Below are positions 14,367 through 17,304 of a stretch of DNA of 32,000 nucleotides, piece after piece. Positions within the stretch are counted from its first letter, which is position 1; the number at the start of each line of letters is the position of its first letter. The position numbers were made by a program, and so were the translations under genes. The stretch spans positions 1 through 32,000 of the forward strand of contig NC_013926.1 of the NCBI RefSeq assembly GCF_000025665.1, read 5' to 3'. The notes below the pieces were generated by a model. The model did no database searches. It worked only from the letters and a program-made list of their open reading frames with translations, and was not told the DNA's origin. This stretch comes from Aciduliprofundum boonei T469. Lineage in GTDB: Archaea; Thermoplasmatota; Thermoplasmata; Thermoplasmatales; Aciduliprofundaceae.

Positions 14367-17304
14367 ACCATTAAGCCGTCCGGGGAATGGCTTGGCTCGG
14401 GTGCCGAAGAAGGACGTGCCCAGCGGCGATACGCCACGGGGAGGCGTATGGAGCCTGAGATCCGTGGATCTCCGAATGGGACCTCCTGGTCGTTAAGGCG
14501 GCCACTCCCTCATGGGAGGGGGAACCCGGGGAATTGAAACATCTTAGTACCCGGAGGAGAAGAAACCAATAGGGATTCCGTGAGTACCGGCGAGGGAAAA
14601 CGGAATAGAGCAAACCGAATCCTTTTCCGAAAGGAGAAGGAGATGTGGAGTTGTGGGACCTGATCCAATGCCTCCCAGGCGAACCCGAAGTCCTCTGGAA
14701 AGAGGCGCCGTAGAGGGTGAAAGCCCCGTAGGGGTAAGTCTGGTGGCTATGAGGTCGGGTATCCCGAGTACCGTGCCTTGGATATGGCGCGGGAATCTGG
14801 GTGACATCAGGCATCCAACTCTAAATACACCCCGAGTCCGATAGCGAACTAGTAGGGTGACCGAAAACTGAAAAGTACCGCGGAAGCGGGGTGAAAAGAG
14901 CCTGAAACCGGGCGGCGACAACCTGATGGGGCGAGAAAGGGTAGAAGTTCCGTAGCTGGAATGGACCGTCGTCCCATCGTCCGTGTTGAAGAACGGGCCA
15001 GGGAGTTCCGTCCGTCGGCGAGGCTAAGCGCGAAGGCGCGTAACCGAAGCGAAAGCAACATGCCCGCAGCCCCGCAATGGGGTCAGGGGCGGGGTGCGCT
15101 CGCCCGGAGTCGGCGGAGGGAGACCCGAAGCCGGTCGATCTAGGCCTGGGTAGGTTGAAGCCTCTCGAAAGGGAGGTGGAGGACCGAACCGGTGCTGACG
15201 TGCAAATCGCTCGGTTGACCTGGGTCTAGGGGTGAAAGGCCAATCTAGGCCGGCATTAGCGGGTTCCCCCCGAGACTGCCCGCAGGTAGACCTTCCCGGA
15301 GGTAGCCGGTGGGGTAGAGTTACTGATTGGGTGCCCAGGGACCGAAAGGACCCAGCACCCTTTCAAACTCCGAACCTGCCGGCGCCGTAGAAGGGAGGAG
15401 CTAGGGTCGTCGGGATAAGCTTGACGCCCGAGAGGGAAACAACCCAGAGGTGGGTTAAGGTCCCAAAGTGCCGGCTAAGTGTCATGGAAAGGGCGTCCAT
15501 GGCCTAAGACAGCGGGGAGGTTGGCTTAGAAGCAGCCACCCTTTAAAGAGTGCGTAACAGCTCACCCGCCGAGGTCATGGGCCCCGAAAATGGACGGGAC
15601 TAAGCCGGCCACCGAGACCCACCGCCGCCGAGAGGCGATGCGGTAGGGGGGCGTGCCGCGGGATGAGAAGCGTCTGCGTGAGCAGGCGTGGATCGCGCGG
15701 CATCGCGAATCCTGGCGGGAGTAGGAGCAAAGAGCCGTGAGAATCGGCTTCGCCGTAGGGGCTAAGGGTTCCTCGGCAACGCTCGTCAGCCGAGGGTTAG
15801 GCGGTCCTAAGGTGCACCCCAAGTGGAGTGTACCGAATGGGAAGCCGGTTAATATTCCGGCCCCGTGGGTGTTCCGCCCAGCGGATGACGCTTCGGGCTA
15901 GGCCAAGTACCGTCGCCGCGGTATCTAAGCGTTGAAACTCCTGGAGTTCCGTAATGGAGAGAAGGGAGTGAAGACGTGATGGGCCCTCCTAGGGGGGGTT
16001 TGGCTGATGCCTGGAGCCCGTGAAAAGTCCGTTGGGGTCAAGCCCACGACCGTACCAAGAACTGACACAGGTGCCCCTGGGTGAGAAGCCTAAGGCGTGT
16101 GGGACCAATCGACCCGAGGGAATTCGGCAAATTAGCCCTGTACCTTCGGAAGAAGGGGTGCCTACCTCGAGAAGAGGTAGGTCGCAGTGACTAGGGGACT
16201 CCGACTGTTTAACAAAAACATAGGTCGGTGCAAGCCCGAAAGGGTGTGTATACCGGCTGAAGCCTGCCCAGTGCCGGTACCTGAAACCCGGGTACAACCG
16301 GGCGAAGGGCCGGTAAACGGCGGGGGTAACTATGACCCTCTTAAGGTAGCGTAATACCTCGCCGCTTAATTGGCGGCTTGCATGAAGGCTCAACGAGGGT
16401 CCCACTGTCCCCGGGTCGAGTCCCCTGAAACCGATGTACTGGTGCACAATCCAGTCTCTCCCACGTGAAAGCGAAGTCCCTGTGGAGCTTTACTGCAGCC
16501 TGCCGTTGCGGTATTGTTGGGGATGCAGAGGGTAGGCGGGAGCCGTCGAAGCCACCTCTCCGGGGGTGGTGGAGGCGCCGATGGAACACCGCCCTTCCTC
16601 AGCGGTACCGCTAACCCGCGCTGCGGGGACACCGGTAGGTGGGCAGTTTGGGTGGGGCGCCACGCCCTCGATAAGGAAACAAGGGCCCCCAAAGGTCGGC
16701 TCAGGGGGGTCAGAAATCCCCCGTAGAGTGCAAGGGCAAAAGCCGGCTTGACTCGGATCCGCACAACAAGGGTCCGAGATGGGAAACCAGGGCCTAGCGA
16801 ACCACCCAGTCCTCACCGATGGGGGCGGGTGATAAGAGAGAAGTTACCCTAGGGATAACTGAGTTGTCTCCGGCAAGAGTTCACATCGACCCGGAGGCTT
16901 GCTACTTCGTTGTCGTCTCTCCCTATCCTGGCGGTGCAGCAGCTGCCAAGGGTGGGGCTGTACGCCCATTAAAAGGGATCGTGAGATGGGTTCACTACGT
17001 CGCGAGACAGTAGGGTTGCTTTTCCGTGGGAGTGTTCGGCGTCTGAGGGGAAGGAGCCTCTAGTACGAGAGGAACGGGGCTCCGCGGCCTCTAGTCTACC
17101 GGTTGTCTGGCAAGGCATTGCCGGGCAGCCACGCCGTAGCCGATAAGTGCTGAAAGCATCTAAGCACGAAACGGCCCCTGAAACGAGACGCCGTTGAGGG
17201 CACCCCTAAAAGAGGGGTTTGATAGAGCCCGGGTGTAAGCACCGAGCCTTCGGGCGAGGTGTTCAGCCCGTGGGTCACTAACGCCCAAAGCTATCTTCCA
17301 GTCC
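14352..17304 (+). rRNA. rrl: 23S (LSU) ribosomal RNA, stand-alone gene
   Basis: GC-rich block carrying LSU landmarks: GGGGAATTGAAACATCTTAGTACCC (5' domain), the GTPase-centre GGTTGGCTTAGAAGCAGCCACC..AAAGAGTGCGTAACAGCTCAC (about 15519-15565), GGGATAAC (16852-16859), the sarcin-ricin loop AGTACGAGAGGAAC (17062-17075), and GTGCTGAAAGCATCTAAGCACGAAAC near the 3' end. Ends are inferred from the processing stem, +/- about 20 nt. Confidence 0.97.

Follow-up and report, generated by a model that had tools for sequence, protein, structure and literature searches.

Substituted exit-tunnel and A-loop bases in the 23S rRNA of Aciduliprofundum boonei and their recurrence across Archaea

Introduction

This analysis concerns the single 23S rRNA gene located in the first 32,000 nucleotides of Aciduliprofundum boonei T469 contig NC_013926.1 (forward strand; the whole of this stretch is referred to as the window), in which several unpaired bases in the ribosome's peptidyl transferase centre (PTC), exit tunnel and A loop differ from those of bacteria. 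In bacterial ribosomes, N6 of A2062 (donor) contacts N7 of A2503 (acceptor), and both adenines have been called universally conserved, their conservation being ascribed to nascent-chain sensing (PMC5499644). Atomic mutagenesis by Koch et al. demonstrated that A2062, A2503 and U2586 are required for macrolide-dependent ErmCL stalling and not for overall translation (PMC5499644). A cell-free scan of all E. coli PTC point mutants classified A2062, A2503, U2504, U2586, G2588 and U2555 as mutationally flexible; compared with wild type, the A2062U ribosome kept 94% activity and had a bulk rate of 1.02 against 1.03 (PMC7049736).

The E. coli A2062U mutant and the A2503 and U2586 variants are altered at the same positions as Aciduliprofundum; they translate well and lose drug- or peptide-dependent stalling (PMC7049736, PMC5499644). 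However, they represent single engineered changes in a bacterial ribosome, whereas the archaeal ribosome of Aciduliprofundum carries natural changes at three sensor positions at once. To our knowledge, no such stalling system has been described for an archaeal ribosome. For the A loop, engineered E. coli fidelity mutants of U2555 with raised read-through and frameshifting were reportedly obtained by O'Connor and Dahlberg in 1993. These likewise carry a purine at 2555, while A2555 in Aciduliprofundum is the fixed wild type of its family.

Natural counterparts were found in several archaea. Aciduliprofundum sp. MAR08-339 carries the same U2062, U2503, A2555 and C2586, is 97% identical over the last 1 kb, and differs from the window only as strains or species ordinarily do. 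Cuniculiplasma divulgatum and Ferroplasma acidiphilum are alike in U2062, C2586, U2499, U2453, the C2057-G2611 pair, the compensated helices and the unlinked rRNA genes; they keep A2503 and U2555, whereas the family of Aciduliprofundum has U2503 and A2555. Pyrobaculum aerophilum IM2 and related Thermoproteaceae offer natural U2062 and C2586 in a cultured archaeon, but they keep A2503, have C2504, C2500/A2501 and C2555, and their U2062 is of independent origin. Methanomassiliicoccales, Thermococci and Altiarchaeota share with the window a natural non-A base at 2503, in every sequence among the matches listed; it is C instead of U, and A2062 and U2555 are kept. No mention of U2062, U2503 or C2503 in archaea was found in the literature searched, and the main text of a paper on 23S-28S conservation (PMC4574749) does not mention these positions.

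The explanation considered best, with a probability of roughly 80%, is that the window encodes a working single-copy 23S rRNA whose odd unpaired bases are lineage-fixed substitutions, acquired stepwise at mutation-tolerant positions.

Bases at the focal positions

Positions are given in E. coli numbering (MG1655 rrlB), derived from a MAFFT alignment of the window with E. coli and 30 relatives over domains IV-VI. Alignment with Infernal to the Rfam archaeal large-subunit (LSU) rRNA covariance model provided a second, independent register. Both alignments agreed: the consensus GAAGACCC corresponds to GAAGUCCC in the window, UCGAUGUCg to UCGUUGUCG, and cUGUUCgCC to CUGUACGCC. An earlier note on this DNA had assigned the bases at 2062, 2503, 2555 and 2571/2572 by manual alignment. 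Its coordinates and bases were correct in both registers; the covariance model placed no A at the equivalents of 2062 and 2503, which upholds the manual register. The features concerned are as follows.

14356-17300, plus strand: single-copy full-length LSU (23S) rRNA gene; Rfam RF02540, 2824.5 bits, model positions 1-2987 of 2987
16472-17018, plus strand: domain V core, closed by 2057/2611 (C-G), with seven compensated helix pairs inside
16477, plus strand: U2062, sensor base of the exit tunnel, where bacteria and the archaeal consensus have A; both alignments
16854-16859, plus strand: canonical PTC inner shell G2447, A2450, A2451, C2452
16910, plus strand: U2503, PTC/tunnel, m2A2503 in bacteria; both alignments
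16959-16961, plus strand: canonical A-loop U2552, G2553, U2554
16962, plus strand: A2555, A loop, adjoining G2553/U2554; both alignments
16978-16979, plus strand: AU at 2571/2572, the ordinary archaeal state (Rfam archaeal consensus 'au')
16993, plus strand: C2586, tunnel entrance, third base implicated in ErmCL stalling; E. coli alignment

The bacterial-type sensor bases A2062, A2503 and U2586 are absent, U16477, U16910 and C16993 standing in their place. Beyond the changes listed in the earlier note, three were observed at sites kept by the Rfam consensus or by E. coli, namely C2586 (16993), U2499 (16906) and U2453 (16860). In contrast to what that note had assumed, AU at 2571/2572 is not a departure: it is the archaeal consensus and was also seen in Methanomassiliicoccales and Woesearchaeota loci.

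The seven compensated pairs were confirmed, with both sides changed relative to E. coli: 2057/2611 (C16472-G17018), 2066/2444 (T16481-A16851), 2455/2496 (A16862-T16903), 2456/2495 (G16863-C16902), 2509/2579 (T16916-A16986), 2588/2606 (C16995-G17013) and 2589/2605 (T16996-A17012). The loop of helix 93 reads GCGA. Over model positions 2161-2706 the covariance-model alignment contained no marks of non-canonical pairs, and the consensus helices were kept by standard pairs. The catalytic and tRNA-binding bases were intact (G2447, A2450, A2451, C2452, U2585, A2602, G2553 and P-loop G2251-G2253 within GGGGCG), as were the GTPase-centre sequence and the sarcin-ricin loop, all of them, apart from G2553, among the elements the note had described as canonical.

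The LSU score clears the RF02540 gathering cut-off of 50 bits by a wide span, with a full-length model match. The A. boonei genome consists of a single contig of 1,486,778 bp and is 99.9% complete; an Rfam search of it returned exactly one LSU gene, so that a second, canonical rrl copy, for which a check had been proposed, does not exist there. The 16S gene lies at 1,422,346-1,423,823, approximately 77 kb from the 23S gene around the circle, which makes the rRNA genes unlinked.

Independent contigs were also compared. Mock-community contigs were identical to the window, and a hydrothermal-vent metagenome contig over 16638-17030 showed 0 differences. A vent metatranscriptome contig of 704 nt, over 16333-17035, showed 15 differences, none of them at 16477, 16910 or 16962. 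In this comparison, uncovered stretches in runs X14 and X17 carry no information on absence. Expression of the LSU gene is weakly shown, on the basis of that 704-nt contig, which comes from a close relative; an RNA library can contain DNA.

The 23S rRNA of the window is functional, and not a pseudogene or sequencing noise, because the gene is the sole copy, its helix changes are compensated, and the same states are present in the family genomes and in the vent metagenome and metatranscriptome contigs. The earlier note had reached the same conclusion from the compensated helices.

Distribution within Thermoplasmatota

U2062 and C2586 were found, by alignment to E. coli, in all members of the order with data, covering families f1, f3, f5, f6 and f7 and including Cuniculiplasma divulgatum, Ferroplasma acidiphilum and Aciduliprofundum sp. 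MAR08-339. Among 301 sampled Thermoplasmatota genomes, U2062 was confined to this order, with A2062 elsewhere among the matches listed (genuine LSU sequences). The states that the earlier note had regarded as unusual are common in the surrounding clade.

The two remaining positions were distributed more narrowly. U2503 together with A2555 occurred in 10/10 genomes with data of the DHVE2 family (f1), to which Aciduliprofundum belongs; these are separate assemblies from three genera. Family f6 has A2503 and A2555, f4 (G023) has U2503 and U2555, and f5 has A2503 and U2555 in 9/9. The state of f4 is shared by a distant metagenome lineage (L290), and both f6-like contigs and contigs with U2503 and U2555 turned up again in metagenomes. 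All four combinations of 2503 and 2555 are thus present in the order, so that 2503 or 2555, or both, must have changed more than once whichever tree is assumed.

Across 249 archaeal LSU sequences scored, A was the rarest base at 2555 (T 219, C 18, A 12). It was present only in DHVE2 and in the sister lineage of that family (G025, L249, L292), the two forming one clade. As far as these sequences go, A2555 alone among the substituted states is restricted to this clade.

Recurrence across Archaea

When 185,579 species genomes were scanned with the context ACYTCGBTGTCG...ATCCTGG, at least 120 loci had a non-A base at 2503. Among the matches listed, C2503 was present in every Methanomassiliicoccales, Thermococci and Altiarchaeota locus, U2503 was combined with A2062 in a Woese-/Nanoarchaeota clade, and DHVE2 as well as a separate DPANN lineage had both U2503 and U2062. 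The DPANN class around this last lineage had A2062 with C2503 and C2504 in 28/29 sequences.

A metagenome scan for a non-A base at 2062 likewise gave at least 120 loci. Of the 72 alignable U2062 contigs, about 33 have U2503, about 32 have A2503 and 7 have C2503. On one U2062 contig, the neighbouring tryptophan-tRNA ligase was nearest to Nitrososphaeria and Thermoproteota proteins.

Thermoproteota were sampled evenly and without regard to the trait, yielding 201 genomes at least 90% complete, centred on Acidianus infernus, of which 112 had an LSU match; the A. infernus assembly at the centre of the sample (G514) had none. U2062 was present in 23/112 genomes, in at least six separate blocks, and a block of thirteen includes Pyrobaculum aerophilum IM2. 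C2555 was common in Thermoprotei.

A tree was calculated with FastTree from 263 LSU 3' kilobases after removal of the focal columns, and states were placed by parsimony. The fewest changes required were 12 at 2062, 16 at 2503 (a few of them intron artefacts), 9 at 2504, 5 at 2555 and 15 at 2586. The description of 2062, 2503 and 2555 as essentially invariant, on which the earlier note relied, does not hold against these counts; 'near-universal' is true for bacteria and the small Rfam seed and not for Archaea as now sampled.

When considering base calls at 2503, inserts in the rRNA genes were noted. Metagenome U2062 LSU genes often carry them (L191, L192, L204, L205, L207 and others), and 30/104 loci were set aside. 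Five such loci are interrupted directly after E. coli position ~2500-2502, adjoining 2503, and the inserts resemble archaeal rRNA introns. Inserts at this place cause automatic alignments to misread position 2503. Artefacts of this kind, with inserts beside 2500-2503, accounted for G2503 (five tips) and for U2503 in L192 and L278; these were pruned before gains were counted.

Other observations were made in the same scans. In the DPANN class mentioned above (L154-L182; genomes G434-G513, including a 'Candidatus Iainarchaeum' record), the sequence UCGCCGUCG has C at both 2503 and 2504, and 2504 is another base treated as invariant in bacteria. In a soil and peat lineage of Thermoproteota (L186, L187, L209 and ~35 comparable metagenome loci; G549, G581), the PTC ring is altered far more; it reads GGGAGUAAU, corresponding to A2447, G2448 and U2452, and the lineage also has C2500, U/C2503 and C2504, together with U2062. 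One bin of this lineage (G549) contains two LSU copies (C4:505-970 and C6:80-545) that differ at 2503, U versus C, which may reflect two operons or the mixing of two strains in the bin.

Probable stepwise fixation at tolerant sites

Under the explanation preferred here, A2062U and U2586C would date from the ancestor of the order as a whole (Thermoplasmatales in the wide sense), U2555A would have followed in the ancestor that DHVE2 shares with its sister lineage, and A2503U in the DHVE2 family. The bacterial-type contact network of A2062, A2503 and U2586 would thereby have been lost or rewired, with catalysis untouched. With the inner shell, G2553, the P loop and every helix preserved, peptide-bond formation should be normal. 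Repeated change at the substituted sites throughout Archaea indicates that constraint on them is weaker there than in Bacteria.

Several points weigh against this explanation. The changes would be nearly neutral when judged from E. coli in vitro data, which do not come from an archaeon. A2555 is rare and of single origin (12/249, all in one clade). The U2555A change is said to lower fidelity in E. coli (O'Connor and Dahlberg, 1993), and it may not be neutral. Finally, the excess of U2503 gains on U2062 branches, described below, suggests that the two sites are not independent, unlike the prediction of pure drift.

Most of the finding is unremarkable: the gene is typical of its lineage, and its states recur across Archaea at mutation-tolerant sites. 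It nevertheless bears on the 'universally conserved' status of A2062 and A2503, since one or both are missing in whole archaeal orders, including cultured Thermoplasmatales, Pyrobaculum and Aciduliprofundum. It follows that the sensing role of these adenines is dispensable or built differently in Archaea. Conservation statistics drawn from mainly bacterial data overstate constraint, and the observed bases bear on the expected action of PTC- and tunnel-binding drugs on archaeal ribosomes.

Possible coupling of 2062 and 2503

The earlier note had proposed that the joint change from A/A to U/U reflects co-variation of a functional pair. In its obligate form this was ruled out, as the U/A, A/U, A/C and U/C combinations all occur. 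In a contingent form it is plausible: after pruning of the intron artefacts, seven gains of U2503 were inferred, six of them on U2062 branches, including two on which 2062 itself changes. U2062 branches account for 28% of the branch length and 45% of the branches, giving binomial P values of 0.0025 and 0.034, respectively.

The corresponding explanation is that U2062 and U2503 form a co-evolved pair, in which the A-A contact was converted to U-U (or first to a U-A Hoogsteen-edge contact) and A2062U made A2503U acceptable or favoured. This is given somewhat less than an even chance; it is compatible with stepwise fixation at tolerant sites, to which it adds epistasis. The direct N6-N7 contact of the two adenines in bacterial ribosomes (PMC5499644) speaks in its favour, as do the sister contrasts, in which the G553/G577 clade is U/U against A/A in G545, and the G430 DPANN clade is U/U against A/C in its class; no independent contrast ran in the opposite direction. 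In the trait-blind Thermoproteota sample, U2503 was present in five genomes (G549, G561, G521, G553, G577), all with U2062, and in no A2062 genome read at both sites.

In contrast, most of the order, Pyrobaculum/Thermoproteus and many metagenome lineages stably combine U2062 with A2503, the Woese-/Nanoarchaeota clade has A2062 together with U2503, and C2503 was gained on both 2062 backgrounds. A paired sign test with 10 pairs, of which about three (2-5) were informative, gave a median p of 0.25, the pairs being too few for significance; it neither counts against coupling nor proves it. The gain counts themselves come from parsimony states on a FastTree tree of ~1 kb, with tips picked by trait-based scans and with two of the gains within one lineage.

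Extended to Archaea as a whole, the proposal reads that the two tunnel-sensor adenines are coupled, with about ten origins of A2062U and with the change of A or C2503 to U almost only on that background. The lineages concerned would be DHVE2, two other Thermoplasmatales lineages, one DPANN lineage and two Thermoproteota lineages. This wider statement is likewise tentative, its odds falling a little short of even.

If the contingency of U2503 on U2062 is true, it would constitute comparative, antibiotic-independent evidence of a functional interaction between the two bases. The 2062-2503 contact would then matter outside Bacteria and could be rebuilt as U-U, and the cultivable Aciduliprofundum would provide a natural model of a re-made tunnel relay combined with a purine at A-loop position 2555.

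Other explanations

The substitutions could instead be adaptive and make the ribosome intrinsically insensitive to natural products with binding sites in the PTC and the upper tunnel, which is considered unlikely. In bacteria, such resistance arises from changes at 2062 and 2503, A2062U being cited as a macrolide-resistance mutation (PMC7049736), and A2503 is described in PMC12887959 as the site recognized by the drug classes phenicol, lincosamide, oxazolidinone, pleuromutilin and streptogramin A. Repeated, independent gain of the same bases could also reflect selection. However, the same states are found across very different habitats, namely acid mine, soil, hot spring and vent. For the vent habitat, no sign of drug exposure or of producers was found, nor was one looked for. 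G2058 is moreover already present, at 16473 in the window, as it is in Archaea generally, and archaea carrying G2058 are largely insensitive to macrolides.

That the odd bases are sequencing or assembly errors, or belong to a degenerate or minor rRNA copy, was rejected as having next to no chance of being right; nothing was found in its favour, and against it stand one LSU gene in a 99.9% complete single-contig genome, compensation of all helix changes, and the same states in 10 family genomes, a mock community, a vent metagenome and an RNA library.

Additional observations

No 5S, tRNA or other RNA family besides LSU was found in the 32-kb window by the Rfam scan. Upstream of the domain V core, the conserved motif UGAAUGG (Rfam ~2070-2076, E. 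coli ~1967-1972) is one base shorter at window positions 16383-16388, reading UGAA-GG. The shortened form is present in all members of the order and in ~75/263 of the archaeal sequences compared, which makes it a common archaeal variant.

Records filed under bacteria were also encountered in the 2503 scan. Three contigs filed under the gut bacteria Clostridiales, Eggerthellaceae and Waltera intestinalis (L041, L075, L123) carry an LSU of Methanomassiliicoccales type, group within that clade and are probably archaeal contigs that were binned wrongly. Further bacterial records with a non-A base at 2503 were a Rhodothermus metagenome-assembled genome (MAG) with C, Lentilactobacillus parakefiri JCM 8573 with C, a Crocinitomicaceae MAG with G, and some Alphaproteobacteria MAGs (loci L064, L097, L142, L067, L081, L116 and L149). 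These may be real, one operon of several, or assembly errors.

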